NCBI GenBank assembly: GCA_029256705.1
Contig: JAQSXK010000001.1
Location: forward strand, 29,864-93,863
Origin: Clostridia bacterium
GTDB lineage: Bacteria; Bacillota; Clostridia; TANB77; CAG-465
DNA length: 64,000 nt
Direction of reading: 5' to 3'
Shown one piece after another: positions 23,767-40,559 of this stretch (its first letter is position 1; the number at the start of each line of letters is the position of its first letter). The notes under the pieces are model-generated. The model made no database searches. It was given only the letters and a program-made list of their open reading frames with translations, and was not told where the DNA came from. The position numbers and the translations under genes were made by a program.

Positions 23767-24804
23767 TTACCCTTTATTTTCTTCTATATGTTTTTGCCTC
23801 AATTGTCCACAAGCAGCATCTATATCACTACCTAATTCTCTTCTTACTGTTGTAACAATACCAGATGAATTTAGTGTATCCATAAATATTTGTATATTTT
23901 TTTCTTTAGGTTTAGAATACATACCATTTTTGATCTCGTTTACAGGAATTAAATTTACGTGAGCAATCATACCACGTAAAAGTTTTGCTAAACTAAGTGC
24001 TACTTCTTTCGTGTCATTTACTTCATTAATTAAAGCATATTCAAAACTAATTCTTCTACCTGTTGTTTTTATATAATATTTGCAAGCATCAAGTAATTCT
24101 TTAATTGTATATTTATTTGCTATAGGCATAATTTTTCTTCTCTCTTCATCAGTAGTACTATGTAGAGAAATAGACAAGGTACATTGTATATTTTCGTCTG
24201 CTAGTTTATATATATTTGGAACAATACCACATGTAGATAAACTTATATGTCTAGCCCCTATATTTAGTCCTAAAGGATAATTAATTATTCTAATAGATTT
24301 TACTACATTATCATAATTATCTAAAGGTTCACCAATTCCCATATATACAACATTTGAAATTCTTTCTTTCGTATATTTTTCAACAGCAATTATTTGCCCC
24401 TCAATTTCGCTTGCAAGTAAACTTCTCTCATACCCAGCTTTAGTAGAAGCACAAAATTTACATCCCATTTTACATCCAACTTGTGTAGATACACATATTG
24501 TATTTCCATGATTATATTTCATAAATACAGCTTCAATAGCACAATTATCAGGAAGCTTAATTAAAAACTTAATTGTATCGTCTTTTGTAGATTTTTGAGC
24601 TTCTAAAATAGTTAATTTTATTATACTAGTATTTTCTTTTAATTTATCTCTTAAACTTTTAGATATATCCGTCATTTCATCAAAGCTTTCTACTTTTTCT
24701 CTATGTAGCCATTTATATATTTGTTTTGCATGAAACTTCTTTTCACCTAGTTCGTCAATGTATTTTTCTAATTCTTCTAATGTATATTCATTCAAAATTA
24801 TCAT
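23767..24804 (-). CDS. rlmN: 23S rRNA/tRNA m2A methyltransferase RlmN
   Basis: CVSTQVGCKMGCKFCAS, MGIGEP, IDAACGQL. Confidence 0.96.
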   Translation of the reverse strand: MIILNEYTLEELEKYIDELGEKKFHAKQIYKWLHREKVESFDEMTDISKSLRDKLKENTSIIKLTILEAQKSTKDDTIKFLIKLPDNCAIEAVFMKYNHGNTICVSTQVGCKMGCKFCASTKAGYERSLLASEIEGQIIAVEKYTKERISNVVYMGIGEPLDNYDNVVKSIRIINYPLGLNIGARHISLSTCGIVPNIYKLADENIQCTLSISLHSTTDEERRKIMPIANKYTIKELLDACKYYIKTTGRRISFEYALINEVNDTKEVALSLAKLLRGMIAHVNLIPVNEIKNGMYSKPKEKNIQIFMDTLNSSGIVTTVRRELGSDIDAACGQLRQKHIEENKG

Positions 24805-25745
24805 TCAAACATATCTCCTAATTCTATTTTATTTCCATTTAAAAATGCAGATATCTCCATAACTTTACTACCTTGTGGTTGTATTTTAATTACTTCAATA
24901 CAGCTATCTTTGCATTTGATAACTAATCTATTTTTATTAACATAAACAACTTGACCAATATTTCCTTCAATATTTTCAGTTGTTTTTACTTCTAATACTT
25001 TAAATTTTCTTCCATCATTATGGATTATATAACTACCTATGTATGGAGAAAGTCCTCTTACAAAATTAAATATTTCTCTAGCAGATTTATTAAAATCTAT
25101 TTTTGTCATCTCTTTTTCTATCATAGGAGCAATAGTAAAATCACCTTCTTGTTTTATTCTAACTATATCTCCAATAACTATTTTATCTAAAGTTTTAACT
25201 AATAAATCACTACCAACTTGCATAAGTTTGTTTGTCATTGTTTCCAAATTATCTTCATCAAATATTTTCACTACTTCTGTAAGTAACATATCTCCTGTAT
25301 CCATACCTATATCCATAAACATGGTAGTTATACCAGTTTCAGACTCACCATTAATTATAGCGTGATGTATTGGAGCAGCACCTCTATATTTAGGAAGTAA
25401 TGATCCATGAACATTTATACAGCCTAATCTTGGAAAATCTAATATTTCTTTTGGTAATATCTTTCCATAAGCAGTTACTGCAATTATGTCTGGTTTTAAT
25501 TCATTTAATATTCCAATAACTTCTTCATTTTTTCTAATCTTTTGTGGTTGAAACACAGGTATATTTTTGCTTAGTGCATACTCTTTTACAACTGAAGCTT
25601 TTAACTTCATGCCTCTACCACTTAAAGTATCTGGGTTTGTAAAAACTCCAACTACATTATATCCGCTTTCGTATAAACCTTCTAACGAACATTTAGCAAA
25701 TTCTGGTGTTCCCATAAATACAACTTTAATATCTTTTCTATTCAT
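24801..25745 (-). CDS. fmt: Methionyl-tRNA formyltransferase
   Basis: VFMGTPEFA, AYGKILP, NVHGSLLPKYRGAAPI, MDTGD. Confidence 0.96.
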   Translation of the reverse strand: MNRKDIKVVFMGTPEFAKCSLEGLYESGYNVVGVFTNPDTLSGRGMKLKASVVKEYALSKNIPVFQPQKIRKNEEVIGILNELKPDIIAVTAYGKILPKEILDFPRLGCINVHGSLLPKYRGAAPIHHAIINGESETGITTMFMDIGMDTGDMLLTEVVKIFDEDNLETMTNKLMQVGSDLLVKTLDKIVIGDIVRIKQEGDFTIAPMIEKEMTKIDFNKSAREIFNFVRGLSPYIGSYIIHNDGRKFKVLEVKTTENIEGNIGQVVYVNKNRLVIKCKDSCIEVIKIQPQGSKVMEISAFLNGNKIELGDMFE

Positions 25746-25949: not shown

Positions 25950-28900
25950 TTATGGATAAATTTCATACAATCTTATACTAGCATATGCGACTTGTGTAAA
26001 ATATTTTATATACTTTGTATTCGCTGGTACTGTATATATATCGGTATATAATGTAACACCATTTATTTTACTATTTCTAGTAAACGTACTTATGACTGCT
26101 TTTTGAGAATTTAAAAAGCTTATACCTGGTATTCCTTCACCCATATCCCATTTGCATTTTATTGTTTTTCCTATCATACTTGTATCTACTTCTATATATT
26201 GATCTGTCTTAGTATAAGTAGATGTATTCAAATTATTATCAAACGCTTCTACTTTTAAAGCATCTGCCACATTTGCCGTATAACTAGATATTATTCTTGT
26301 TTCACTTCCATATTGATCTATTCCTTTTGCATATATTGTCTGACCTTGATCTACTTTGATAGGATTATTAATATAATTTAACCATTCTCCGGTTGTTCCT
26401 ATTCTATATAATTTTTGTATACTACTTTGAAAATATGAAATTGATACCATTTGATGTGGTAGTCTTACAGCATTTGCTGGATCTGCTGTTAATATCATAT
26501 ATCCATCTGTTGTAGTAAATGTTGGTTCATTACTTATTCCAATTTCATATAAATATGTGTAATTTGCTGAACTAGATGTGACACTTATCCATTTTGTATT
26601 ATCTGGTACAGTATATATCTCATCAAATGTTCCACCAGTTTTGCTATAAGTATTTATTACTTGTTTGCTCTCATTTAGAAAGCTAAATGAAATAGTCCAC
26701 TGCCAGCTATATGAATACCATTTTATTCTCATTTTCTTACCTATCATATTACTGTCTACTGCCATCAGTTGATTATTTCCTCCTGATATATATGTGGAAT
26801 CGTTTTTATCATAAGCAGCAGCTCCTAAAGCATCATTCATAGTAGCAGTATAACTTGATACAATTCTAGTTTCAATTCCACTTTGATCTATTCCTTTTGT
26901 ATATATTGTTTGACCTTGTAATATTTTTATAGGTTGATCATTATAATTTAACCAATCTCCTGTAGCTCCTATCCTATATAATCTTTGAACACTTGTTGGA
27001 AAATAATTTACAGTTACCATTTGATATGGTTCTCTTACATCTCTTGTTGGATCAGCTGATAGTACCATATAAGAATTTGCTGCACTGAATGTTGGTTCAT
27101 TACCTGTTTGTATCTCATATAATCCATAAATATTAACTACCTTTATCCACTTTGTATTTAGTGGAATAGTATATACTTCATCATACATAAGATTTTGATT
27201 ATACACAGTTTTATCAATTTGACTTATTATTTGTCTACTTTCATTTAAGAATACAATACTTTGAGTTGATGGACCATTTGCTGCAACATTCCACTTAACC
27301 CTCATATTTTTTCCTTGCATAGTACTATCTACAGCCATATATTGATTTGTTGCATTAGAAATATATGTACTGTTATTACCATCATACGCTTGCGCTTTCA
27401 ATGCATCGGCTGGCATAGTTACTGTTTGACTAACTGATACTTCTAATCCACTACCTTTTTTAACGCTTTTGGCTATTATTGTTCCACTTGAAACATGTAT
27501 TGAGGCTGTATATAATGTCCATGTTGTTCCATTATTCGTACTATAGTAATTATCTATATCTGTTCTATTATCATATACTATAGTCGTAGTATCATCAAAT
27601 ATTACACCATATGAAGCTAATATTGGATAACTAGCTGTTGAATTTATAACTGGTAACTTTGGTTTATCTAGATCTAGACTTACTACCTTCTTTTGAACAG
27701 TTATTTCATTTCCAGCTGTATCTTTACCTTTTGCATATATTGTTACTGTTCCGTCTGCATTTTGCCAATTGTTTGCTAATATTGTATTTGATGTTATTGC
27801 AAATGTAGCTGTATAATTAGTCCAAACCGCATTACTTGTTCCAATCTTATACTGTTTTAAAGTAGCATCGCCATAGTTTATTGTTACATTTGCATTTAAT
27901 CCTACTGTAGTTTCTGGACTAACTTGTATATCTATTTTTGGAGCAGTTAAGTCTACATTTGTTACATTTAATGTATATACTTGTTTATTTCCTACTCTAT
28001 CTTCTGCGTAGAATGTATAGTAACCATTACTTGTTATATTTACTATACTATTATTCGCTATACTAGTTCCCCCACTTGAAAAGTAACTTTCCCCTAAAAT
28101 TCCTGGGGCCCACTTAACAATTCCAACTTCTACATCATCTGTTACATTTACTTTTACTGCTACTTTTTGCATTGCAGTATTTAAATCTGCTGTTAAATTA
28201 ATTATTGGAGGATTCTCATCAATATTTGTTACTTTAAGCATTCCTTCCTTAGACCATACTTCACTTTCATCCATTCCTTTTGCATATATTACTGCGTTAT
28301 TTCTATCTACAGTTATTGGACCAGTATAATCTTGCCAGTCTCCTAGTGTTTCATTTGGATTTAATATTCTATACTGTTTTGTTATAAGTGATTGATCATA
28401 TATAATAGTTACATTTACCTCTTTAGCTGGATTAGTTGTATTTAATACAATTTGTGGAGCTCCAGCTGCAACTCTATCCCATCTCATAAATATATTTTCA
28501 AACATTTCGCTTATTGGTACATTAATTAAATAATAATCTCCCATAAATGTTATCAAATTACCATTTTCATCTTCTATTTTTACTAGTGTTCCATTTTGTA
28601 TAACAGTATCTTTAAATTCTGGTTTTATTAATAATATTCCATCATTTTTATAACTTTTCCAATCACCAGTTGAAGTCCATTTGTACTCTCTACCATTTGA
28701 ACCTTCTGGATAATTTAATTTTAATATATAATAACTTCCTTTATCCAGTACAAGTACTGGTGGTGGCGGAACTATATTACTTACAGTATATGTTGAATTA
28801 GAACTTTGTCCTTTAATATTTTCACTATATGCAAATATTTTAGTACCGTTTTTTGTTACTTCAATATCTCCTGTATAATCTCTCAAAGATCCACCATCTA

Positions 28901-31337
28901 TACTATATCTTTTAATTGTTGCATATTTATCATAGTTTATTTTAATAGTCACTTTACTTGCTTGTATTTTATTTGACGGAATTGCAGTTATTTCAGGTTC
29001 AGATATTCCATCTACTATATTATCTATAGTTTTAGCTGTTTGACCTAATGAATTTGGTGCTTTTGCATATGCATATACTGTGCAGCTTTTATCTACGTCA
29101 AACGCTCCAGTATATTCTTTCAAATCACCATTTGAACCAATTTTATAGTACTTTTCTACTGCTTTTGCATCATATTCTATATTTACTGTAGCCTTTGCTA
29201 CCTTTGTAGTAGAAAGCGCTGGTTCAGGGTTTACATTTATATTTATAGCTAAATTTTGAGTAGTCTTTGGAGGTGTTAATTTTCCTATGTTTGTTATATC
29301 TAAATATGTATCTGTTACTCCATTTACGTTAGTACCTCTAGCATATATTCTTTTATTTTCAGTTATTGTAATAGGTGCAGTATATGGTACATAAATAATT
29401 CCATCCTCACTATATTGTATTTTATCTGCATCATTATATTTTACTGTCACAATTACTGAACTTTGCCCATATGTAGAACTCCACGGATATACTACTGCAT
29501 CTATATATACATATGGTTTAGTAGCCGAAGTACTACCTGTATCTCCAGGTTTTTTAATATTTTGGATTCTTGCCCTTGCTTCTTGTGATTGTCTACCGTC
29601 AGCTGTTTTATAATATGCATAAATTTCCATATTATCTCTAACAACAATTGATGATTTATATTCTACGTAATCTCCATATCTACCAACTTTTAAATATGTT
29701 TTGTTTGCTCCAGCAGGTGATGATACACTTACTGTTACCGATGATACAAATCCACTGGTTGGATCTAAATTTATTATAGGAGCAATAGGTATAGTATCTA
29801 TCACAGGTGGCTCTGGATAAGTATCCGGTGGCGTTACCACTTCGTTTATCCTAATATACGCTATATTTGACTTATTTCCATCTGAATCATAATAATATGC
29901 CATTATGAAAGTTCCCCAATTATTAACAATTATATCTTGTGAATAATTTTGTTCTAATCCATAATTTTGTATATATATTTTTTTAGCAGCATTTGCTGGA
30001 TAAGTTATCTGTACTCTTGCTTTTTCATCAGCATTTTGTCCTGCATTTCTAGTAATAGTAGGTGCTACTAAATTATTATTAGTAGACGTTTTCGGTGGTT
30101 CAAAAGGAGGTGGATTTTTTGGTTCATAAGGAGGTAATGGTTCATGTGGAGTAGGTTCCTTCGGAGGATTACCAGTTGTTGTATCATTTATATATATTGA
30201 TGTTGAAACAGATTTTTTTCCACTAGCGTCATAGTAATATGCTATTATGTATGTTCCATAATTTTGTACATTTACTTCGCTTGTATAATTTTCTTCTATT
30301 CCATAATTTATTGTATATATTTTTCTAGTGGCATTCTCTGGATATGTTACTTTTACTCTTGCTTTTTCTGTTCCTACTGGATCTAATCTAGTTATTGTTG
30401 GTGCTGCCAAAGTAATTTCCTTTATTTCTATATTTCCTATATATACACTATCACTTCCAGAAATATCTCTTGTAAGAAGTAACGAACCATCTGTGTTATA
30501 TATATTTTCAGTCTTTTTTGCTCTTGCTTCTATTATACAGTTTTCAGTGATAATGAAAGGGCCTGTATATGTCATCCAACCGCTTTCACCAACTCTATAT
30601 TCTTTAATTGTTGCAGTTTCATCATAATTTATATTTACATTTACTTGCTCAACTTTTGTAGTTCCGCTACTATCTGGAACTATATCTACTAAAAGCGTTC
30701 CTGCTGGTGGAATAACTACCTCTTTACCATTTACTTTATATTTTATCCATACATCTTTAGTTCTATCTAGTGGAATAGTTATTGGTCCTGTGTAATTTTG
30801 CCACATAAGCATAGGATCAACTCTAATTTCACCTTCACTACCAAGCCTCCACTTTTTTTCCGTTGAATTTGCTGGATAATATAACGTCAATTTTATCCAA
30901 CCATCCCACATCTCCTGATTTTCTTCAGGTCCAGTAATACTTCCATTATCTATTATCCCGTTATCTAAAGTATGCCACCTTTTACCTTCAAAACTATCTC
31001 CAACATAATCATAAATTTGGTTTGTTTTTACGTCTATTATATATCCTTTATCTTTCTTATTACTTGCTAAACCATTTACTCCGGCTTGACTTTCATTTAT
31101 CCAATATAAATCTATATCATCTACTGTTTTACCAGGATTTAATTGTTCGATTGTTGTGCTAAGTGATGGCACATTACTTGTTATGTCTTGTTTATCACTT
31201 AAACTTAGTTTACCTTCTAATGGGAGTTTAAAACTGTTTGGACTAGATATATCTATATTACTAACTGAATACAGATTTACCCCTTCTTCAACATTTTTAA
31301 AATCACTCATGAATCTTGCCTTTTTAGAACTATCCAT
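25950..31337 (-). CDS. Giant pilin-related adhesin A lacking the pilin leader; Ig/Fn3-like repeats, Pro-rich linkers, three C-terminal beta-sandwich repeats
   Basis: N-terminus aligns with the post-helix part of the pilin at 6503; many ~80-aa repeats (I.Y...KEY.IG..W..YT.PI.V..N..IYA); C-terminal 3x DAL...AYD.N.ST...LYEI. Confidence 0.8.
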   Translation of the reverse strand: MDSSKKARFMSDFKNVEEGVNLYSVSNIDISSPNSFKLPLEGKLSLSDKQDITSNVPSLSTTIEQLNPGKTVDDIDLYWINESQAGVNGLASNKKDKGYIIDVKTNQIYDYVGDSFEGKRWHTLDNGIIDNGSITGPEENQEMWDGWIKLTLYYPANSTEKKWRLGSEGEIRVDPMLMWQNYTGPITIPLDRTKDVWIKYKVNGKEVVIPPAGTLLVDIVPDSSGTTKVEQVNVNINYDETATIKEYRVGESGWMTYTGPFIITENCIIEARAKKTENIYNTDGSLLLTRDISGSDSVYIGNIEIKEITLAAPTITRLDPVGTEKARVKVTYPENATRKIYTINYGIEENYTSEVNVQNYGTYIIAYYYDASGKKSVSTSIYINDTTTGNPPKEPTPHEPLPPYEPKNPPPFEPPKTSTNNNLVAPTITRNAGQNADEKARVQITYPANAAKKIYIQNYGLEQNYSQDIIVNNWGTFIMAYYYDSDGNKSNIAYIRINEVVTPPDTYPEPPVIDTIPIAPIINLDPTSGFVSSVTVSVSSPAGANKTYLKVGRYGDYVEYKSSIVVRDNMEIYAYYKTADGRQSQEARARIQNIKKPGDTGSTSATKPYVYIDAVVYPWSSTYGQSSVIVTVKYNDADKIQYSEDGIIYVPYTAPITITENKRIYARGTNVNGVTDTYLDITNIGKLTPPKTTQNLAININVNPEPALSTTKVAKATVNIEYDAKAVEKYYKIGSNGDLKEYTGAFDVDKSCTVYAYAKAPNSLGQTAKTIDNIVDGISEPEITAIPSNKIQASKVTIKINYDKYATIKRYSIDGGSLRDYTGDIEVTKNGTKIFAYSENIKGQSSNSTYTVSNIVPPPPVLVLDKGSYYILKLNYPEGSNGREYKWTSTGDWKSYKNDGILLIKPEFKDTVIQNGTLVKIEDENGNLITFMGDYYLINVPISEMFENIFMRWDRVAAGAPQIVLNTTNPAKEVNVTIIYDQSLITKQYRILNPNETLGDWQDYTGPITVDRNNAVIYAKGMDESEVWSKEGMLKVTNIDENPPIINLTADLNTAMQKVAVKVNVTDDVEVGIVKWAPGILGESYFSSGGTSIANNSIVNITSNGYYTFYAEDRVGNKQVYTLNVTNVDLTAPKIDIQVSPETTVGLNANVTINYGDATLKQYKIGTSNAVWTNYTATFAITSNTILANNWQNADGTVTIYAKGKDTAGNEITVQKKVVSLDLDKPKLPVINSTASYPILASYGVIFDDTTTIVYDNRTDIDNYYSTNNGTTWTLYTASIHVSSGTIIAKSVKKGSGLEVSVSQTVTMPADALKAQAYDGNNSTYISNATNQYMAVDSTMQGKNMRVKWNVAANGPSTQSIVFLNESRQIISQIDKTVYNQNLMYDEVYTIPLNTKWIKVVNIYGLYEIQTGNEPTFSAANSYMVLSADPTRDVREPYQMVTVNYFPTSVQRLYRIGATGDWLNYNDQPIKILQGQTIYTKGIDQSGIETRIVSSYTATMNDALGAAAYDKNDSTYISGGNNQLMAVDSNMIGKKMRIKWYSYSWQWTISFSFLNESKQVINTYSKTGGTFDEIYTVPDNTKWISVTSSSANYTYLYEIGISNEPTFTTTDGYMILTADPANAVRLPHQMVSISYFQSSIQKLYRIGTTGEWLNYINNPIKVDQGQTIYAKGIDQYGSETRIISSYTANVADALKVEAFDNNLNTSTYTKTDQYIEVDTSMIGKTIKCKWDMGEGIPGISFLNSQKAVISTFTRNSKINGVTLYTDIYTVPANTKYIKYFTQVAYASIRLYEIYP

Positions 31338-31346
31338 GATACCATA
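31245..31346. repeat. 102-bp identical direct repeat, copy 1 (5' end of adhesin A)
   Basis: Base-by-base identical to 39260-39361 (offset 8015). Confidence 0.95.
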
Positions 31347-31405
31347 TATTTATTATATCCATTTATTGATTTTCTAATAAACTTTTATTAACATATTTTT
31401 ACATA

Positions 31406-31525
31406 AATAAAATTGCTAATAAACCTACTTATATTAGCAATTTTATTATATTATATATGTTTTTTTTTGTCAATATCTTTTACACTTATTATATGTTAAA
31501 TTATGATTTGTAATATATTTGTAAT
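31406..31525 (-). promoter_or_regulatory. Regulatory module of adhesin A: consensus sigma-A promoter, overlapping 15-bp inverted repeat, upstream TGTAAT-N5-TGTAAT box
   Basis: TTGACA (31468-73)-17-TATAAT (31445-50); AATAAAATTGCTAAT-N12-ATTAGCAATTTTATT (31406-47); direct repeat at 31509-25. Confidence 0.8.
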
Positions 31526-31679
31526 CTTAAAACATATTATCTATTTAATTGTTGTTTTAAAATATTTTATTATCCCATTTTATGAAATTTGACATATGTG
31601 TTATAATATATGATATTTAATATTTTAATGTATACAAAAACTTTTGTATACACTTACAATAATTTAAGGAGGGGCTACT

Positions 31680-32597
31680 ATGATATCATTAAATTCTTTC
31701 ATATATCTACTAAAAAACACTCTGCCTACTGGTTTAGATGATATTTCAAAAGCAAAATATCTATATATAAGATTGGGGGAAATTATTTCTTTCGATCCTC
31801 TATATTCATTTGGATCAAGCAAGGATCGATATCGGATATATAATAATATACAATACAAATATGATGATTTAAACGAATTATTTGAAAGCAAATTATTAAT
31901 TTGTAAATCTATTTCATATATCTATAAATATATACTCAATGAATTTGAAATTAATTCATATGTACGTTATGATAATCCAGATGATAATCACGTGTTTAAT
32001 ATCATTATAACCCAGAATAACATTAAAATTTCTGCTGATGTACAACGTGATTTAGAATTTATACAAACTAAGTCAAAAACACGGTATTTTGATTTTATCA
32101 ATAGTACTTTATATGATCAAGTAGAAATTGATAAGAAAATTGGCTATTTGCAAAATGATAATGATTATTTTGATATTAAGTTGCTTGAGTTTAAAAATTT
32201 GCTTAAAGAAAATACCTCGCTGATTAGTAAAGTTGAATCAATATTTAATTTCTTATTTTGTAATAATAACATAAATAATTTAAAATTCTCAGAAAATATA
32301 AAATATTATAAATATGTATTAAAAGAAATTTTAGATTACAGAGAATTTAATAGATTATATTTCTCAATATGTTATGAGATCTGTAATAATAAGCAAAAGT
32401 ATATTCCTATAATATGTATACGTTCTAATCCCTCAACAATTTTTATTTACTCTAAAAAGAATCATAAGTATGATTTGATTTCTGAAATAGAGTTGTTAAA
32501 AAAGTTAAAAAGTAAATTACTCTTTATTCAAAGAGGTTCAATTTATATTATGAAAAAAGAAATAATATCTACAACAAACTTAAACAAAATCTTATAA
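31680..32597 (+). CDS. Transglutaminase-like / cysteine-protease-fold protein
   Basis: Putative Cys-His-Asp triad with typical spacing: LICKSISYIY..., NHVFNII, SADVQ; AGGAGGGG SD; no signal peptide. Confidence 0.6.
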   Translation: MISLNSFIYLLKNTLPTGLDDISKAKYLYIRLGEIISFDPLYSFGSSKDRYRIYNNIQYKYDDLNELFESKLLICKSISYIYKYILNEFEINSYVRYDNPDDNHVFNIIITQNNIKISADVQRDLEFIQTKSKTRYFDFINSTLYDQVEIDKKIGYLQNDNDYFDIKLLEFKNLLKENTSLISKVESIFNFLFCNNNINNLKFSENIKYYKYVLKEILDYREFNRLYFSICYEICNNKQKYIPIICIRSNPSTIFIYSKKNHKYDLISEIELLKKLKSKLLFIQRGSIYIMKKEIISTTNLNKIL

Positions 32598-32617
32598 TTA
32601 ATAACCCAGCTGTAAAT

Positions 32618-32661
32618 AAAAATAAATATTGAAATGTAATTACATTTCAATATTTATTTTT
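32618..32661. terminator. 44-bp perfect palindrome between convergent genes
   Basis: AAAAATAAATATTGAAATGTAA|TTACATTTCAATATTTATTTTT. Confidence 0.7.
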
Positions 32662-32782
32662 TATATCTTTTTTTACGTTATATGAAAGCTATCCTTACAA
32701 AACATACAACAAAAATATTATTCAATATAATATTGCTATAGTACTAGTTTTTAAACTTTATACTATAATATATTTAAATATT

Positions 32783-35700
32783 TTACAAGCCAGAATTTAC
32801 CACAATTACAGGAATAAATCCACATCCAGTATTTCCACCATAAGTATTATACATAGCAAATATTCCTGACGTTTTTGGTGTATTTTGATTCCAATATTCT
32901 CCACCACGTACACAGAAGCCATTACTATAGTCTGGTGTTACTAGGTAGTTATAAAACCATGCGTAAGCTCCTGAATATTCAGCTATCTCATACATTGCAT
33001 GACCTTTTGGAGATGTAGTGCTAAATAATGTTGTCGGTGTATATACATCTTTATATTGTGCTGGTGCATTAATTAAATTATTTCCCCAACCTAAAGATAC
33101 ATCATTTCTATATGCAGCTACAAAACTTCCTTTTATGGAAGACATATCATATATACCATATATATTTCCTGTTGTAGTTTGAGCAACATTTGAAATATAT
33201 CCTGTTCCTGTTCCACCACCAGTAATTGTTGTATTATTCTTAGTTATCTCAATAGTATTTTTTCCATAAGAAGATTTACTTAAATATGCGACAGCTCCCC
33301 ATTCTACATTTTTAATCAAATGAGTATCTAACCCTGATCCTGTAGTGCCCCATCCATATCTACTATTTGTTTCCATATTTCTACTTGCTGTATATGCACC
33401 ATTTATTCCACTATTATACATATCTAGCACTGTTATACCTGGTTTAAAATCTGGATTAGTTGTACTTCCACTAGCCATAAATTTTGCAACCCATATTCCA
33501 GTTAGTTCTGTAGTTCCGAAAGTGAAAGCTGGATGAGTAGTCCATGCATTATTTGACGTAGTTACTGCACTACCCGTATTTACTGTTCTATTAGAATTCC
33601 ATAAATCATTTATGCCTTGACTAAATTGTATATTTATTATTCCTGTAGTACTTGTTTGATGCCATCCTGAAGATATTTTATATACATACCTTGGTATCCA
33701 TACCCACATACTTCCGTCTGCTGTTTGCGCATTTGCCCATTCCTTATTTGTATAGTTATACCAATTAGTATTATTATCTGGATCTGTTACTGTATCCCAT
33801 GTGCTTGTTGAAGTGTTCCAAATTTTTGCTGTCATTCCTGGTGCAAGCATTGGTTTATTTGCAACACCTTCCTCAATATTGGTTATAGTAATAGTGCTTT
33901 GGCCACTATAATTTCCAGCTGCATTTCTTCCTCTAGCATAAATAGTAGTATTATTTACTGTAACTACTATAGGCGATGTATATGTAAGCCAAGTCGTTCC
34001 ATTTAAACTGTATTGTTTTGTTGTTACATCTGAAGAGTATGTAATCGTAACTGTTACATTTCCACTTGTAAGTCCTGTAGGAGAAGCTGACATAATAGGA
34101 TTTATTGGTGATATATTAGTTACTGTATATGTAGTTTCGGGAGACCAAAATCCATTTTGATCTAACGCTTTAGCATATATAATTGTAGTATTTTTATTTA
34201 CTATAAACGGACCCGTATAGTCTAACCAATTACCTAGTGTTCCACCTGGTTCTAGAATCCTATATTTTCTTTCTACTGAACCTTGTTCATATGCAATTGT
34301 AGCTGTAACTTCAGGTGCATTTGAAGTAGGATTTACTGTGACTTTAGGTTCTTCAGGCGCTACAACTATTATTGGTCTAATAATCCCATTTTCGTTACTG
34401 TATGTATTTTCTAAACTAAATATACCAGCTTTATATGTACTATAATAATATCCTCCTCTCATGAAGAATGGTGAATATGAATACGGCTTATCTATAAAGT
34501 TACCAAACCATTCTAGATTTCCACTATAATTACTTGAAGTTTCATAAAAAGCATCACCTTTTTTAGATGTTGCACTATATATATCTGTAATAGAATACAT
34601 ATCTCTATATTTAGCATTGGCATTTATCATAGTCGGTGCATAAGCTAAATATCCGTTAGAATTATCATTTAAATATGCAGCTATAAAAGTATATTTCATT
34701 GCTGACATATCGTATACTCCATGTACATTTCCTGTAGTACTTTGTGCTCCATTAGATATATATGAAATCCCTGTTCCACCACCTGCATAATATGAAGTAC
34801 TAGGATTTATAGATATTTCAACTGTATTTTTTCCATATGAAGATTTACTTAAATATGCAACTGCTCCCCATTCCGTATTTTTTATCATATGGGTGTCTAC
34901 CCTTTCACCGCTAGTTCCCCAACCATATCTGCTGTTTACTTCCATATTTCTAACTGCTGTAAATGTTCCATCTAAACGCCCTATATTATATGCATCTAAC
35001 ATTGTACCACCAGGCTTCGAATCAATTGCTGAGCTCGTTCCACTAGCTGCAAATTTTGCAACCCATATTCCAGTTAATTCTTGTGTTCCAAATGTAAATG
35101 CCGGATGATTCGTCCAAATATTATTTGATGCTGTTGCTAAATTCGAAGTATTTATTGCACCTATTACTGGACTATTCCAATTATCATCTATACCTTTACT
35201 AAATTGTATATTTATAACTCCTGTATTTGTTGTTTGATGCCATCCTGAAGATATTTTATATACATATCTAGGTATCCATACCCACATACTACCATCGGCT
35301 GTTTGTGCATTTGCCCATTCTTTCCCAGCATAATTATACCATGTTGTATCAGTATCTGGATTAGTTACCGTATCCCAAGTATTACTAGAACTATTCCATA
35401 TTTTTGCTGTCATACCTGGTGCAAGTAATGGTTTATTTACTACTACTTGAATTGCAAGTACAAAGGCATTAGTTTTACTTACTACAGTATTTCCCGCATT
35501 ATCTGTTCCCTTTACCCATAAATAATAAGTTCCTTCAACACCTGTTTTTGTTATTAATGAAGAATTAGTAAATGCTACCCATCCTGAAGTTGGTGTAGTC
35601 ATATTTTGTACATCCCAAACATACTGTAATGTTGATGCATCTACTCCACTACCGTCAGTATCTGTTACTGTAACTGTTGTACTAGCAGTTTCTACATTAT

Positions 35701-38700
35701 TTGCTCCATTAGTACTAAATCCAACCACAGGATTTACTTTATCTATATTTGAAACGGTAAGGGTACTTTGACCACTTTGATTCCCAGCTTCATCTTTTGC
35801 TTTGGCATATACAGTTGTATTATTATTTGTAATTACTATTGGGTTTACGTAAGTTTGCCAAGAAGTACCATTAGTACTATACTCCTTAATCACAGAACTT
35901 TCACTATATACTATTGTAACAGTCACGCTTCCTTTAGTCCATGATGTAGGTGCTGCTGAAAGAATAGGATTCTCTGGAGGCAACACGTCTATATTCTCAA
36001 CATTTAAAGTATATACCTGTTTATTTCCTACCTGATCTTCCGCATAGAAAGTATAGTATCCATTTTCTGTTATGTTAACATTACTATTATTTGCTATTAC
36101 AACTCCATTTGAAGTAAAATAACTTTCACCTTGAGTGCCAGGTGCCCATTTTACTATACCCACAGCCACATCATCTGTTACATCTACTTTCACAGCTACA
36201 CTTTGTTTTACAGATGTAAGATCTGCTGTTAGTTTTATTACTGGTGCAACCTCATCAATATTAGTTACTTTAAGCATTGCCTCTTGAGACCAAACTTCAC
36301 TATTATCCATAGCTTTTGCATATATTATAGTATTATTTCTGTCTATTGTTATAGGTCCATTATAATTTAACCAATCTCCAAGTGTTCCGCCAGGTTGTAA
36401 TATTCTATATTGTTTTTTTACCATTTCTGTATCATAAACAATCGTTGCAGTAACTTGCTTTGTCGGTTCTATAGGATTTATTACTATTTGTGGAGCTAAT
36501 GGTGCTACTCTATCCCATCTCATAGATATATTAGCAAATAACTGACTTATAGGTACATCTATTAAATAATAATCACCTTCAAACGTCAATAATTTTCCAT
36601 TTTCATCCTCTATTTTAATTAATGTACCATTTTTTATAACTGAATCTTTAAATTCTGGTTTTATTAATAATATCCCAGCTTCTTTATACGATTTCCAATC
36701 TCCATTTTCCTTCCACTTATATTCTCTACCATTTGAGCCTTCTGGATAACTTAGTTTTAATAAATAGTAATTTCCTTTATCCAGTGCAAGAACTGGTGGT
36801 GGTGGTATTATATTTTCTACTGTATAACTTGAACTAGATTTTTCACCAGAACTGTTTTCACTATATGCATACACAGTTGTACCATTTGTAGTTATATCAA
36901 ATGGTACTGTATAGTCAGTTAGCGCTGAACCATTTATACTATATTTTTTTATAGTTGCATACTTATCATACGTTATGTTTATTCCAACTTTACTTGCTTG
37001 TATACTATTACTTGGACTTGGAACTATTACGGGATTAGATATTCCAATTAGTAAATTATCTATTACTTTAGAGGTTTCCCCTTTTCCATTTTTAGATTTT
37101 GCATATGCATATATAGTACAACTACTTGTGATATCAAATGGTACTGTATACGTTTTTAAATCTCCATATTTTCCAATTGAATAATATTTTTCTGTTGCTT
37201 TGCTATCATATTCAATACTTACTTTTGCACTCGCAACCTTTGACGTAGATAATGAAGGTTCAGGATCTACATTTATATTTACAGCTAAAATCTCAATAGC
37301 ATCTGGTACTTTTATTGCGCCAATATTTGTTATATCCAAATACGCTTCTGATACACCATACGCATTTGTTGCTCTAGCATATATTCTTTTATTTTCCTTT
37401 ACTACGAAAGGAGTCGTATATGGATTATATACTATTCCATCATTACTATATTCTACTTTATCTGCATAACTAGATGCTATATTTACTACAACTTCACTTG
37501 ATTTAGCTGCTCCACTCCATGGATATGGATTTGCATTTATATAGACATATGGCTTCTTATTTGCTGTTCCGTCATCATTTTTCAAAATATTGGTTATTCT
37601 TGAATGAGCTTCAAGTGACTTTTCCCCTGCAGAATTTCTATAGTATGCATATAATTCAACATTATCCCTTACTACTATTGGAGCTGTATATTCATGATAT
37701 GTTCCATATCTTCCTATTTTCAGGTATGTAACAGTTGCTCCAGCTGGAGAAGTTACACTAACTGATACCTCTGATACCAAACCACTATTTGGGTTTATAT
37801 TAATAACAGGAGCTGGAACTATTTCTGAAGGCTCTATTGGAACCGGCTCTAAAACTCCTGGCTCTGTTGGAATCTCGTTTACCCTAATCCATGCTATCTG
37901 AGATTTATTACCATCTACATCATAATAATATGCCATTATATATGTTCCCCAAGTTGTTACACTTATCTCATTTACATAATTTTGTTCTACTCCATAATTT
38001 TGTGTAAATATTTTTCTATCTGCATTTGATGGATATGTTATTTGAATTCTTGCCTTTTCACTTCCATTTGAAGCATCAAGTCTAGTTATAATTGGTGGTG
38101 GAAGTTTTATTTTTGTATCAGGCTCATATGGCAACGGAACTTCTGGCACATACGGTGGAAGTGCCTCATAAGGTTTAGGATCTTCTGCGGCTTTTACCGT
38201 AGTATCGTTTATATATATCGATGTAGACAATGATTTTTTACCACTTACATCATAATAGTAGGCTATAATATGTGTTCCATAACTTTTTATACTTACTTCA
38301 CTTGTATAGTTTTGTTCTACTCCATAATTTATCTTAAATATTTTTCTAACTGCATTTTCTGGATATGTTATTTGCAGCCTTGCTTTTTCATCACCAGCAG
38401 CAGGCGGAAGTCTTTTTATAACCGGAGCAGCAAGGTTAGTTTCTTCAACACCTATATTCCCTATATATACTAGATCTTTTCCAACTATATCTCTTGACAC
38501 AAGTAAAGTTCCATCTGTATTATATATTTTTTCTGTCTTTTTTGCTCTTGCTTGTATAAGACAATTTTCTGTAACAGCAAATCCTCCAATATATGGCATC
38601 CAATCGCTATTTCCCACTTTGTATTCTTTTGTTGTAGCATCACTATCATAATTTATATTTACATTTACTTCAGAGACTTTTGTTGTTCCAGTTTTGTCTG

Positions 38701-39397
38701 GAACTATATCTACTAAAAGTGTTCCTGCTGGTGGCACTATAACATCTTCATTATTAATTTTATACTTTATCCATACATCTTTTACTCTATCTAACGGTAT
38801 TGATATAGGACCCGTATACTCTTGCCACATAAGCATAGGATCTACTCTAATTTCACCTTCATTTCCAAGTCTCCACATTTTAGCAGTTGAATTTGTTGGA
38901 TAGTATAAAGTTAGATTTATCCAGCCGTTCCATAATTCTTGTGTGTCTGGAACAACAGCTATTTCAGTAACTCCACCATCTAATGTATGCCATCTTTTGG
39001 TTTCAAAGAAATCTCCTACATAATCATATATTTGATTTGTTGCTACATCTATAACATAACCTTTATCTTTCTTATTACTTGCCAAACCTTTTACTCCGGC
39101 ATCAGCTTCATTTATCCAGTACAAATCAATATCATTTATTGTTTTACCAGGATTTAATTCTTCTATTTTTGTCTTAAGTGTTGGAACATTATTTGCTATA
39201 TCTTGTTTATCACTTAAACTTAGTTTACCTTCTAATGGAAGCTTAAAACTGTTTGAACCAGATATATCTATATTACTAACTGAATACAGATTTACCCCTT
39301 CTTCAACATTTTTAAAATCACTCATGAATCTTGCCTTTTTAGAACTATCCATGATACCATACCCATTTATTTGTTTGCTAATAAACTTTATTAACAA
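32783..39397 (-). CDS. Giant pilin-related adhesin B lacking the pilin leader; Ig/Fn3-like repeats and two C-type-lectin/FGE-sulfatase-like domains (ATG equivalent to A is at 39352)
   Basis: First ~1130 aa paralogous to adhesin A; two copies of MWVWIPRY...HPAF...IWVAKF...EWGAVAYL...TTGN..G.YDMS...RGG. Confidence 0.8.
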   Translation of the reverse strand: MLIKFISKQINGYGIMDSSKKARFMSDFKNVEEGVNLYSVSNIDISGSNSFKLPLEGKLSLSDKQDIANNVPTLKTKIEELNPGKTINDIDLYWINEADAGVKGLASNKKDKGYVIDVATNQIYDYVGDFFETKRWHTLDGGVTEIAVVPDTQELWNGWINLTLYYPTNSTAKMWRLGNEGEIRVDPMLMWQEYTGPISIPLDRVKDVWIKYKINNEDVIVPPAGTLLVDIVPDKTGTTKVSEVNVNINYDSDATTKEYKVGNSDWMPYIGGFAVTENCLIQARAKKTEKIYNTDGTLLVSRDIVGKDLVYIGNIGVEETNLAAPVIKRLPPAAGDEKARLQITYPENAVRKIFKINYGVEQNYTSEVSIKSYGTHIIAYYYDVSGKKSLSTSIYINDTTVKAAEDPKPYEALPPYVPEVPLPYEPDTKIKLPPPIITRLDASNGSEKARIQITYPSNADRKIFTQNYGVEQNYVNEISVTTWGTYIMAYYYDVDGNKSQIAWIRVNEIPTEPGVLEPVPIEPSEIVPAPVININPNSGLVSEVSVSVTSPAGATVTYLKIGRYGTYHEYTAPIVVRDNVELYAYYRNSAGEKSLEAHSRITNILKNDDGTANKKPYVYINANPYPWSGAAKSSEVVVNIASSYADKVEYSNDGIVYNPYTTPFVVKENKRIYARATNAYGVSEAYLDITNIGAIKVPDAIEILAVNINVDPEPSLSTSKVASAKVSIEYDSKATEKYYSIGKYGDLKTYTVPFDITSSCTIYAYAKSKNGKGETSKVIDNLLIGISNPVIVPSPSNSIQASKVGINITYDKYATIKKYSINGSALTDYTVPFDITTNGTTVYAYSENSSGEKSSSSYTVENIIPPPPVLALDKGNYYLLKLSYPEGSNGREYKWKENGDWKSYKEAGILLIKPEFKDSVIKNGTLIKIEDENGKLLTFEGDYYLIDVPISQLFANISMRWDRVAPLAPQIVINPIEPTKQVTATIVYDTEMVKKQYRILQPGGTLGDWLNYNGPITIDRNNTIIYAKAMDNSEVWSQEAMLKVTNIDEVAPVIKLTADLTSVKQSVAVKVDVTDDVAVGIVKWAPGTQGESYFTSNGVVIANNSNVNITENGYYTFYAEDQVGNKQVYTLNVENIDVLPPENPILSAAPTSWTKGSVTVTIVYSESSVIKEYSTNGTSWQTYVNPIVITNNNTTVYAKAKDEAGNQSGQSTLTVSNIDKVNPVVGFSTNGANNVETASTTVTVTDTDGSGVDASTLQYVWDVQNMTTPTSGWVAFTNSSLITKTGVEGTYYLWVKGTDNAGNTVVSKTNAFVLAIQVVVNKPLLAPGMTAKIWNSSSNTWDTVTNPDTDTTWYNYAGKEWANAQTADGSMWVWIPRYVYKISSGWHQTTNTGVINIQFSKGIDDNWNSPVIGAINTSNLATASNNIWTNHPAFTFGTQELTGIWVAKFAASGTSSAIDSKPGGTMLDAYNIGRLDGTFTAVRNMEVNSRYGWGTSGERVDTHMIKNTEWGAVAYLSKSSYGKNTVEISINPSTSYYAGGGTGISYISNGAQSTTGNVHGVYDMSAMKYTFIAAYLNDNSNGYLAYAPTMINANAKYRDMYSITDIYSATSKKGDAFYETSSNYSGNLEWFGNFIDKPYSYSPFFMRGGYYYSTYKAGIFSLENTYSNENGIIRPIIVVAPEEPKVTVNPTSNAPEVTATIAYEQGSVERKYRILEPGGTLGNWLDYTGPFIVNKNTTIIYAKALDQNGFWSPETTYTVTNISPINPIMSASPTGLTSGNVTVTITYSSDVTTKQYSLNGTTWLTYTSPIVVTVNNTTIYARGRNAAGNYSGQSTITITNIEEGVANKPMLAPGMTAKIWNTSTSTWDTVTDPDNNTNWYNYTNKEWANAQTADGSMWVWIPRYVYKISSGWHQTSTTGIINIQFSQGINDLWNSNRTVNTGSAVTTSNNAWTTHPAFTFGTTELTGIWVAKFMASGSTTNPDFKPGITVLDMYNSGINGAYTASRNMETNSRYGWGTTGSGLDTHLIKNVEWGAVAYLSKSSYGKNTIEITKNNTTITGGGTGTGYISNVAQTTTGNIYGIYDMSSIKGSFVAAYRNDVSLGWGNNLINAPAQYKDVYTPTTLFSTTSPKGHAMYEIAEYSGAYAWFYNYLVTPDYSNGFCVRGGEYWNQNTPKTSGIFAMYNTYGGNTGCGFIPVIVVNSGL
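39260..39361. repeat. 102-bp identical direct repeat, copy 2 (5' end of adhesin B)
   Basis: Identical to 31245-31346. Confidence 0.95.
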
Positions 39398-39408
39398 ATT
39401 TTTACATA

Positions 39409-39528
39409 AATAAAATTGCTAATTAAATACGTTATATTAGCAATTTTATTATACTTTATATATTTTTTTTTGTCAATAATTTTTATACTTATTACATGTT
39501 AAATTATTATTTGTAATATATTTGTAAT
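39409..39528 (-). promoter_or_regulatory. Regulatory module of adhesin B, same layout as for adhesin A
   Basis: TTGACA (39471-76)-17-TATAAT (39448-53); same 15-bp inverted arms with a different 12-nt spacer (39409-50); TGTAAT-ATATT-TGTAAT at 39512-28. Confidence 0.8.
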
Positions 39529-39587: not shown

Positions 39588-39998
39588 TTATCCTCTTTTA
39601 TGTAAATCTTTTAAAAATATGCTAAGAGTTGGTAATTCATTTGAAATTATATCATACATATATTTACTAGTAACTTCATCATAATTAAAAATTAATTTGT
39701 TTCTAATATTCAACATACTATAATACTTGTCCAAATTTTTAGAATCTAATTTACCATTTTTACATAGTATTTCAAAAATTTCATTATAATTTGAACCATT
39801 TTGAAGTTTAAACTTCTGAATAGTATGGGCGGACAAAAATATGGCAGTTTGAATCGCTCCATACATATATGTTTGCGATGCGGCAGCATTCTTAGAATTT
39901 TCACAAAAACTTTTCTCATCCAGCTTTAGAAAATTTGATAATTCAATAACACATTTCTTAAAGAACTTAACTTTATCTGTTACCACTTTATTATCCAT
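39588..39998 (-). CDS. DUF86/HepT-like HEPN protein, catalytic His apparently lost
   Basis: AIQ..I....H, NY.EIFEIL...G.L, M..IRNKLIFNY (canonical RN.LVH.Y); AAAGGAG SD. Confidence 0.75.
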   Translation of the reverse strand: MDNKVVTDKVKFFKKCVIELSNFLKLDEKSFCENSKNAAASQTYMYGAIQTAIFLSAHTIQKFKLQNGSNYNEIFEILCKNGKLDSKNLDKYYSMLNIRNKLIFNYDEVTSKYMYDIISNELPTLSIFLKDLHKRG

Positions 39999-40022: not shown

Positions 40023-40559
40023 TTATTTTTTACTTTTCTTATATTTTTTATTATTCTTACTATCCTTTGTATTATCTTCCTTCTCTCCTACGTATGTATT
40101 GTATGCAATATCCACAAAAACTCTTCCATCCAGATGATCAATTTCATGTTGTAACACAATAGACTCTACATCTTTTGCATGAATTATTATTTTGCTTCCA
40201 TTTAAATCTTTTGCTTCTACTGTTATTTTTTCATGTCTATCTACATATCCAAATAAATCAGGAAAACTTAAGCATCCTTCTTCAGTAGTTACCATTTGTT
40301 TAGATGATTTAGTAATTACAGGGTTAATAAGAACCTTCGGATTCTTAACTCCATCATCTTTTACATATTCTGAGTCATAAACGACTATTCTTTTCAAAAT
40401 TCCAACTTGACATGCAGCAATTCCTATACCATCATATTTATACATAGTTTCTATCATGTCATTTGCAATTTCTTTTATTTTGTCATCAATTACTTCTACT
40501 TCTCTAGATTTTTTATATAGTAATTCATCTTTTAGTTTACGTATTTCTCTAACTGCCAT
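40023..40559 (-). CDS. def: Peptide deformylase
   Basis: GIGIAACQVG, EGCLS, QHEIDHLDG. Confidence 0.96.
   Translation of the reverse strand: MAVREIRKLKDELLYKKSREVEVIDDKIKEIANDMIETMYKYDGIGIAACQVGILKRIVVYDSEYVKDDGVKNPKVLINPVITKSSKQMVTTEEGCLSFPDLFGYVDRHEKITVEAKDLNGSKIIIHAKDVESIVLQHEIDHLDGRVFVDIAYNTYVGEKEDNTKDSKNNKKYKKSKK

Follow-up and report, generated by a model that had tools for sequence, protein, structure and literature searches.

The window analysed here (the whole stretch of 64,000 nt from contig JAQSXK010000001.1 of a Clostridia bacterium) contains two giant paralogous genes, A and B, which lie in tandem on the minus strand and are separated by an open reading frame (ORF) of 305 aa (Table 1). 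Searches of Pfam and NCBIfam with A and B returned OmpL47-type domain matches only, and those with the 305-aa ORF found no sequence match in Pfam, NCBIfam or PDB. For the latter, the ESM Atlas leads to Transglut_core clusters (with scores of 0.92-0.94, to be taken as a lead only), and the product is possibly transglutaminase-like. Both giant genes are preceded by a promoter and a 5' leader hairpin, and the arms of the hairpin of A are kept in B and in the sister genome G001, while the loop differs.

Table 1. Coordinates of the features discussed (positions in the window; the assembled gene limits are those of the ORF list).
Feature	Position	Strand	Description
Gene A as assembled	25950..31337	-	1795 aa; true product 1832 aa
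Assembly junction in A	31343..31344		about 120 nt missing (GGAGG, ATG, leader codons)
Tract copy 1	31245..31346	-	assembled-ORF codons 1-31 plus 9 nt upstream; exact match to 39260-39361
A 5' leader hairpin	31396..31444	-	13-bp stem immediately past the -10 box; RNA fold -11.8 kcal/mol, z -3.5
Promoter of A	31445..31473	-	TTGACA, 17 nt, TATAAT; 12/12 consensus match
305-aa ORF between the paralogs	31680..32597	+	divergent from A; possibly transglutaminase-like
Gene B as assembled	32783..39352	-	2189 aa; true product 2226 aa with leader
Assembly junction in B	39358..39359		about 129 nt missing
Tract copy 2	39260..39361	-	exact match to 31245-31346
B 5' leader hairpin	39399..39447	-	12-bp stem; RNA fold -9.6 kcal/mol, z -2.9
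Promoter of B	39448..39476	-	TTGACA, 17 nt, TATAAT; 12/12 consensus match

An identical tract in two diverged genes

The feature that had drawn attention to this locus in the initial annotation, a 102-nt tract shared by the 5' ends of A and B, was borne out base for base, and an exact repeat comparison could extend it at neither end (the first mismatch between the copies lies at 31244). No other exact direct repeat in the window is as long (the runners-up measure 38, 37 and 30 nt), and no other exact repeat in the whole 1.39-Mb assembly exceeds 99 nt; given 90% local identity across 340 nt, 7e-4 runs of 102 nt or more would be expected. The same annotation had described the remainder of the paralogs as diverged, with upstream DNA alike and not identical, and this also holds: the rest of the shared coding sequence has about 70% nucleotide identity, the proteins share 64% of their amino acids over residues 1-1225, and the DNA upstream of the two genes is 77-87% identical. 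Scattered tracts of comparable length, which had been named as evidence against a special 5' segment, were looked for along A and B, and no further long identical tract was found.

A leader segment lost at the upstream edge of the tract

In the sister genome G001, an extra 120 nt in A and 129 nt in B lie exactly at the upstream edge of the tract, and in both genes this insert consists of a GGAGG ribosome-binding site (RBS), an ATG and a 37-codon leader. The segment is also present in other assemblies of the strain itself. The JGI/IMG protein P0002 (1832 aa) is identical to A in its last 1795 aa and has the leader as its first 37 aa, and the protein P0003 (2226 aa) is identical to B in its last 2189 aa, which follow a 37-aa leader. 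Each of these two proteins is recorded from three JGI/IMG contigs; the leaderless forms are recorded from one contig only, that of the present assembly. Additionally, the Logan contigs of three sequencing runs that hold the strain (X1-X3) depart from the window at 31344 and at 39359, with no other letter differing among the long pieces listed. Past these points their tails continue for 62 letters in A and 71 in B, a difference of 9 that equals 129 minus 120. An attempt to predict the tail lengths from 31-mers common to the A and B leaders of G001 failed, as G001 has no such word; the tails fit only if the leaders of this strain are more alike than those of G001, and the protein leaders of A and B confirm this, with 2 differences in this strain and 5 in G001. 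Runs X1-X3 and the JGI contigs may derive from the same three samples, and they are independent of the method of the present assembly, not of one another. The runs (including X4, see below) were examined as assembled contigs, which lose rare variants, and a minority of cells with truly deleted leaders could therefore exist.

Taken together, these comparisons place the true start of A 37 codons upstream of the assembled one (as given by P0002). The ATGs at 31337 and 39352 are internal methionine codons, because an RBS, an ATG and a leader are found further upstream in G001 and the JGI proteins, and the Logan contigs diverge at this point. The leaderless look of A and B is almost certainly an assembly error. 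The identity had originally been described as ending 9 nt ahead of the ATG, at the point where homology to pilins would stop; according to G001, P0002/P0003 and the Logan contigs, that edge is an assembly junction. A caution about the assembly had been voiced at the same time, and it was justified in that a problem exists, its nature being a dropped segment and not collapsed differences between the copies. The spacing of 8015 bp likewise holds for the assembled sequence, but the true spacing in the organism is about 8135 nt (8015 + 120), close to the 8138 of G001. Small upstream ORFs that overlap the assembled ATG were also considered, but their frames differ between A and B and they cross the artefactual junction, which makes them meaningless.

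The position of the junction carries the signature of an assembler overlap. From 31343/31344 to the first A/B mismatch there are 99-100 nt, which puts the junction at the edge of a unitig, a single overlap away from where the copies begin to differ; seven pairs of contig ends in this assembly overlap by exactly 99 nt. The length of 102 nt is made up of 99-100 nt from this overlap and 2-3 chance matches, and the true tract is somewhat longer, given the missing segment. Of the 28 contig ends, 18 fall within the family to which A and B belong, and its copy number and arrangement are uncertain for this reason. Short-read assembly errors are known to arise at repeats longer than k, usually with a contig break as the outcome. 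The present case is similar in that the junction lies one 99-nt overlap from the end of the shared sequence and all other repeats in the assembly measure 99 nt or less; it differs in that the pieces appear to have been abutted, with the loss of 120-129 nt.

The explanation that we consider probable is that A and B are tandem paralogs and complete genes, with an old homogenisation of their 5' ends, and that about 120 and 129 nt of them were lost in assembly. Each gene has its own consensus promoter, 5' hairpin, GGAGG RBS and 37-codon hydrophobic leader, and the 5' modules (the leader and the next 30-100 codons or so) were homogenised in the past, as at the 5' ends throughout the family, leaving an identical tract somewhat longer than 100 nt. 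Because this tract would exceed the 99-nt overlap of the assembler, a unitig starting 99 nt before the first A/B difference may have been abutted to the upstream contig, the exact assembler step being our reconstruction. The loss of the segments in this way would explain the sharp upstream edge, as well as why both genes seem to begin at the assembled ATG and to lack a leader. The right ends of the two gaps are identical; their left ends differ by 11 aligned nt and are not accounted for by k.

It is very unlikely that the leader deletions are instead real in the sampled population, whether fixed or in a subpopulation. Deletions of this kind would turn off the export of both proteins with the frames kept intact, for instance in response to pressure from phages or immunity, or as a phase switch that works in one direction only. 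They would suit an assembly in which both genes are deleted with the same right end and both ORFs are intact, the more so as words absent from the reads are not normally produced by de Bruijn and other graph assemblers. Nevertheless, the three JGI contigs and the Logan contigs from three runs of the identical strain differ from the assembly at both junctions, the right end lies exactly one 99-nt overlap from the first mismatch (with a chance of about 3 in 100), and the assembled ATG is not preceded by an RBS. Two independent deletions, or a single one spread by conversion, were considered in view of the differing left and identical right ends; neither direction of conversion yields both junctions, and these ideas gave way to the artefact reading when the 99-nt signature appeared.

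Age and cause of the 5' homogenisation

The synonymous divergence between A and B (Nei-Gojobori dS) starts at 0.08 in codons 1-50 and reaches 0.23, 0.38 and 0.75 in the next windows, a climb that spans the first 100-125 codons or so, and it amounts to about 0.85 across all 1225 codons (omega 0.29). The dS and identity profiles thus describe a local trough of synonymous divergence with diverged flanks, as gene conversion would leave, and they support a 5' end homogenised beyond what protein constraint would explain. On the evidence of this dS trough, gene conversion is the most likely cause of the identity. Other pairs within the family also share exact tracts (of at least 99, at least 99, 77, 62, 51, 50 and 48 nt), almost only within the first 300 nt or so.

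With respect to age, the tract of B in G001 equals both copies in the window and that of A differs by 1 nt, which leaves one change in 4 x 102 nt across four gene copies from two genomes. The 3.7 kb that follow the leader, compared between this assembly and G001, hold 1085 variable sites, of which 883 follow orthology and none groups the paralogs by genome or in the crossed arrangement; the paralogs within a genome are not more alike than the orthologs. Since the B copy of G001 equals both copies and none of the 1085 sites groups by genome, the tract can be placed, on this comparison, before the split of the two genomes. Of the recent gene conversion proposed in the initial annotation, the homogenisation is retained, but its recency is not, given the tract in G001 and the lack of exchange sites.

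Two other accounts of the identity have to be weighed against old conversion. It is unlikely, in our view, that the copies are kept identical by purifying selection acting directly on the nucleotides (for a signal in the mRNA or DNA of the first codons past the leader), even though such selection would agree with the near-invariance of the tract in the two genomes, with the absence of visible A/B exchange after the split from G001 and with the family-wide conservation of the encoded N-terminal segment. Within the corresponding 80 nt, other members of the family match A at only about 80-84% of positions, which makes the constraint far from absolute; the tract lies 37 codons from the true start codon and is hence no initiation region; dS decays gradually over about 100 codons, as nested conversion tracts would give; and among the first 200 aligned columns of A, 7 differ between the orthologs, so that the neighbourhood is not frozen. 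An active crossover at the tract, looping out about 8.1 kb (B and the 305-aa gene) and making a hybrid of the 5' part of B and the 3' part of A, is most improbable. RecA-dependent deletion can act on direct repeats of more than 100 nt in tandem genes, and two contigs of run X4 contain joints, one from 30952 to 38970 in paralogy register and the other from 39035 to 31029. These joints, however, lie about 385 nt inside the genes and outside the tract, have short sides (78 letters) and in one case a depth of 1700, typical of a shared repeat word. Because X4 holds a strain that is 3-5% diverged and covers the whole interval at the usual depth, they fit a hybrid gene, a mosaic ortholog or another paralog alike, and they were set aside. 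In the contigs of the runs, the loop-out of B and the transglutaminase-like gene that had been foreseen for recombination between the copies found no clear support, the only in-register joint being the short-sided one of X4, and both genes are kept in this assembly, in G001 and in the JGI contigs. Placing A behind the promoter of B, the other outcome foreseen, would change little, since each gene has its own full consensus promoter and the hybrid would gain no new one.

The gene family and its relation to known systems

The family of A and B has about 15 members, giant proteins that begin with a prepilin-like leader, and would take up roughly 6% of the 1.4-Mb genome (an estimate in which the members broken at contig ends, roughly 9, are counted whole). 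In an alignment of eleven family 5' ends to residue 1 of A, all nine besides A and B show an in-frame leader; four additional leaders were located at contig ends, and 14 of the 15 family 5' ends have TTGACA at the aligned position. A pattern search for the upstream motif gave no matches in metagenome contigs and, in genome contigs, only two places, both in G001 and both identical to L021. The family leader reads K-G followed by ISLIALVITIIV, with Ala or Val at the position (+5) where Glu is expected, and neither PF07963 nor TIGR02532 matched the family leaders even at E values up to 1; the full set of class III signal features (basic stretch, Gly at -1, hydrophobic helix, Glu at +5, PF07963/TIGR02532) was not found. 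Nonetheless, the Pfam N_methyl domain (PF07963) is carried by 7 of 118 homologs, which makes it probable that the family derives from pilins, and the genome encodes a prepilin peptidase (PF01478 at G000:C8:87139-87459, 69.8 bits, above the cut-off).

It is conceivable, and we regard it as quite unlikely, that the family is a variation system in which a near-identical cassette of promoter, leader and N-terminus serves as a recombination anchor, the A/B tract being one footprint of it. Gene bodies or domain blocks could then be swapped between loci and, in a bolder reading, the short junctions would be real minority molecules and leader loss a recurrent off-switch.

Tandem paralogs with a homogenised 5' module are already known, and the biological import of the present case is small. 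The tufA/tufB pair is an example of bacterial paralogs that evolve in concert through gene conversion. Here, too, two paralogs of the same genome have in common a stretch that is nearly free of synonymous differences and lies between diverged flanks, and the homogenised stretch falls within a conserved module; the difference is that only a 5' module of about 100-300 nt in genes of 5-6 kb is affected, and that the homogenisation must be old or rare, because no exchange is detectable after the split from G001. Concerted evolution of this kind is treated in two published accounts (PMC6053082, PMC8223754).

The practical consequence is one of caution, as two surface-protein genes of 5-6 kb stand annotated without RBS, start codon or export leader, and anyone reading them as cytoplasmic, as silent cassettes or as genes in decay would be relying on an assembly error. 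In the pilE/pilS system of Neisseria, pilin variation uses 5'-truncated silent copies. The resemblance lies in a pilin-like family whose N-terminal part is conserved and whose bodies vary, and the window as assembled even mimics truncated silent copies. The truncation of A and B is not real, however: pilS-like copies, suggested by the leader in the nine other family 5' ends, are ruled out by G001 and P0002/P0003. Both genes have their own promoters, RBSs and leaders, unlike donors that lack a promoter and the 5' coding part, and neither an expression locus nor a donor relation was seen.

A further comparison is offered by the modular type IV pilins, among them Streptococcus sanguinis PilB (PMC8179133). 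In both cases a short pilin-type N-terminal module is fused to large functional modules, and the prepilin peptidase gene and the N_methyl-bearing homologs agree with this likeness. Unlike PilB-type pilins, the family combines leaders without an N_methyl/TIGR02532 match or Glu at +5 with proteins of 1700-2200 aa in about 15 copies. It is noteworthy that a genome this small encodes so many giant proteins of the pilin-leader type, every one of them behind a consensus promoter.

Identical tract, gene family and neighbourhood

The initial annotation reported a perfect 102-nt identity at the 5' junction of two tandem giant surface-protein paralogs (A and B), and this identity is exact, base for base: 31245-31346 equals 39260-39361, with no extension possible at either end, and each copy lies at the 5' end of a minus-strand ORF. 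The tract is the longest exact direct repeat within the window (the runners-up have 38, 37 and 30 nt) and, across all 1,385,642 nt of the assembly (G000), the only exact repeat to exceed 99 nt; if local identity is taken as 90% over 340 nt, 7e-4 runs of such length are expected. At the nucleotide level, A and B match completely between -9 and +93; identity falls to 96% in the window after that, to 85-88% as far as about +340 and to about 70% beyond, and the 300 nt upstream show 77-87%. Across residues 1-1225 the two proteins share 64% identity, after which their architectures differ; neither was assigned a Pfam family, and NCBIfam returned only OmpL47-type domain repeats. In the C-terminal half of B (32783-35900, minus strand), a ~400-aa domain containing the motif DGSMWVWIPRYVYK occurs twice, and A lacks it; one distant homolog found by protein search carries PF03781 (FGE-sulfatase).

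By tblastn of the genome, A and B belong to a large family, with about 15 giant genes (1700-2200 aa) in G000 that combine a pilin-like, hydrophobic leader with the conserved N-terminus LDSSKKARFMSD (for example at C4:28572, C5:95651, C9:7627 and C1:137581, contigs of G000). Eleven family 5' ends were aligned to residue 1 of A, and all nine besides A and B show an in-frame leader M-K-K-K-G-ISLIVLIITIIVVIIIA...NNNI followed by LDSSKKARFMSD; four further leaders of the M-K-K-K-G type are located at contig ends. Genome-wide, a family-type leader is present on 25 ORFs. TTGACA is aligned in 14 of 15 family 5' ends, and weaker relatives of the A/B upstream sequence precede other members (C4:28429-28523, C8:165704-165789). 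The arms of the inverted repeats after the A and B promoters are identical in A, B and the sister genome (G001), while the loop differs; these repeats could act as a stabilising 5' RNA hairpin or as an operator.

Features around the two paralogs
Feature	Position	Strand	Basis
Gene A as assembled	25950-31337	minus	ORF, 1795 aa
Gene B as assembled	32783-39352 (from ATG)	minus	ORF, 2189 aa
305-aa ORF	31680-32597	plus	between A and B
HepT-like ribonuclease toxin gene	39588-39998	minus	PF01934, E 2.5e-16
Promoter of A	31473-31445	minus	promoter scan, 12/12 matches
Promoter of B	39476-39448	minus	promoter scan, 12/12 matches
Hairpin of A	31396-31444	minus	12-13-bp inverted repeat directly after -10 box
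Hairpin of B	39399-39447	minus	12-13-bp inverted repeat directly after -10 box

The genes def and fmt are usually adjacent in Bacillota. Here they are separated by about 14 kb that contain HepT, B, the 305-aa ORF and A, with def at 40023-40559 and fmt at 24801-25745, an arrangement also present in G001. No ORF of at least 80 aa adjoining the HepT-like gene is a candidate MntA-type partner. The 305-aa ORF had been called transglutaminase-like; Transglut_core clusters are among its neighbours in the ESM Atlas (0.92-0.94), but it has no HMM or PDB sequence match, and the label serves as a lead only.

Leader segments missing from the assembly

The assembled A and B have a promoter and hairpin, but GGAGG, a leader and a plausible ribosome-binding site were not found in them. 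Among 41 related genomes searched, seven contain the family, and G001 (same genus) has a syntenic A/B pair, 96-98% identical to the window. The alignment is continuous except at 31344 and 39359, where the G001 sequence is longer by 120 nt in A and 129 nt in B, the surplus consisting of GGAGG, ATG and 37 leader codons ending in ...NGGI, followed by the Met used as start in the window. Two JGI/IMG proteins, P0002 (1832 aa) and P0003 (2226 aa), each from three contigs, have as their last 1795 and 2189 residues exactly A and B, preceded by 37 residues reading MKKYN(V/E)KGISLIALVITIIVIIILAGAVI(L/I)TLSNGGI; the leaderless forms are recorded from one contig only, 361,739 nt long, that of this assembly. 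In the Logan contigs of three sequencing runs that contain the window strain (X1-X3), every listed long piece matches the window with no other letters. The pieces over the upstream region of A fit down to 31344 only and continue for 62 letters, and those over B fit down to 39359 only and continue for 71, alike in all three runs; the difference of 9 letters equals that between the G001 inserts.

The leaderless state of A and B is almost certainly a product of assembly and not real, and the ATG triplets at 31337 and 39352 encode internal Met residues; the earlier statement that the identity stops at the end of pilin homology refers to the assembly junction, not to the organism. A small share of truly leader-deleted molecules may exist in the population, the runs being seen as contigs only. 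With the first A/B mismatch at 31244 and the junction in A at 31343/31344 (1-nt ambiguity), the A/B tract kept at the junction comes to 99-100 nt, precisely the length that a unitig beginning within the repeat would bring along; the further 2-3 letters of identity arose by chance where the left pieces were abutted. All other repeats in the assembly reach 99 nt at most, and seven pairs of contig ends share exactly 99 nt. The two gaps share their right end and differ in their left ends, as would fit two contig ends abutted to two unitig starts. Since family members contain 18 of the 28 contig ends (9 in their 5' parts, 9 in their 3' parts), the family is a main site of assembly breaks. Among internal exact repeats, a single one measures precisely 99 nt (C3:908-1006 and 1402-1500); it falls in the 3' portion of a contig-end family member and may mark another k-limited place.

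Cause and age of the identity

The repeat itself is real, old and ordinary. In G001 the tract spans -6 to +99, one mismatch included, and the copies are 8138 nt apart (about 8135 nt in the window strain, with the missing segment counted). In the window strain it probably reaches upstream to about the L30I codon, ~20 nt further, because only two residues, V6E and L30I, distinguish the A and B leaders. Over 1225 codons (Nei-Gojobori), dS is 0.85, dN 0.25 and omega 0.29, and dS in consecutive 50-codon windows, counted from the 5' end, is 0.08, 0.23, 0.38 and 0.75. Protein constraint or an initiation-region effect explain this trough poorly, since it lies at synonymous sites and 37 codons from the true start. 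Other family pairs have common exact tracts in the first ~300 nt (at least 99, at least 99, 77, 62, 51, 50 and 48 nt) and a single one elsewhere (54 nt); the homogenised 5' module is thus a family property, for which the sequence comparisons make gene conversion the most likely cause. The initial annotation had proposed conversion that was recent, and it is the recency that fails: G001 shares the tract (its B equals both window copies, its A differs by one base), and in an alignment of A and B of both genomes over the 3.7 kb after the leader, 883 sites follow orthology, 148 are singletons (34, 32, 38, 44), 54 fit neither pattern, and at no site are the paralogs grouped by genome.

Direct repeats of about 102 nt can recombine, and the geometry of the 8015-bp loop-out suggested earlier is right apart from 120 nt; nevertheless, none of the contigs clearly supported it, and both genes are kept in G000, G001 and the JGI contigs. 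In-register joints occur only in X4, a run with a 3-5% diverged strain (30952 to 38970 and 39035 to 31029), and were set aside as loop-out evidence: they lie ~385 nt inside the genes, their sides are short or their depth is very high, and the diverged strain still covers the interval. Nor would placing A behind the promoter of B, as had been envisaged, bring the B-5'/A-3' hybrid any regulatory gain, the two promoters being equivalent.

Comparison with known systems

The A/B pattern is a case of concerted evolution, affecting one conserved module within a multigene family. A likeness to pilS silent cassettes was also considered, and vanishes once the leaderless state is recognised as an artefact. 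The A and B leaders differ from those of type IV pilins in having no match to PF07963 or TIGR02532 and no Glu at +5; PF07963 is carried by 7 of 118 homologs, and the genome encodes a prepilin peptidase. The genes of this family are candidate modular type IV pilins, which they resemble in overall design: a pilin-type N-terminus joined to large functional modules (PMC8179133).
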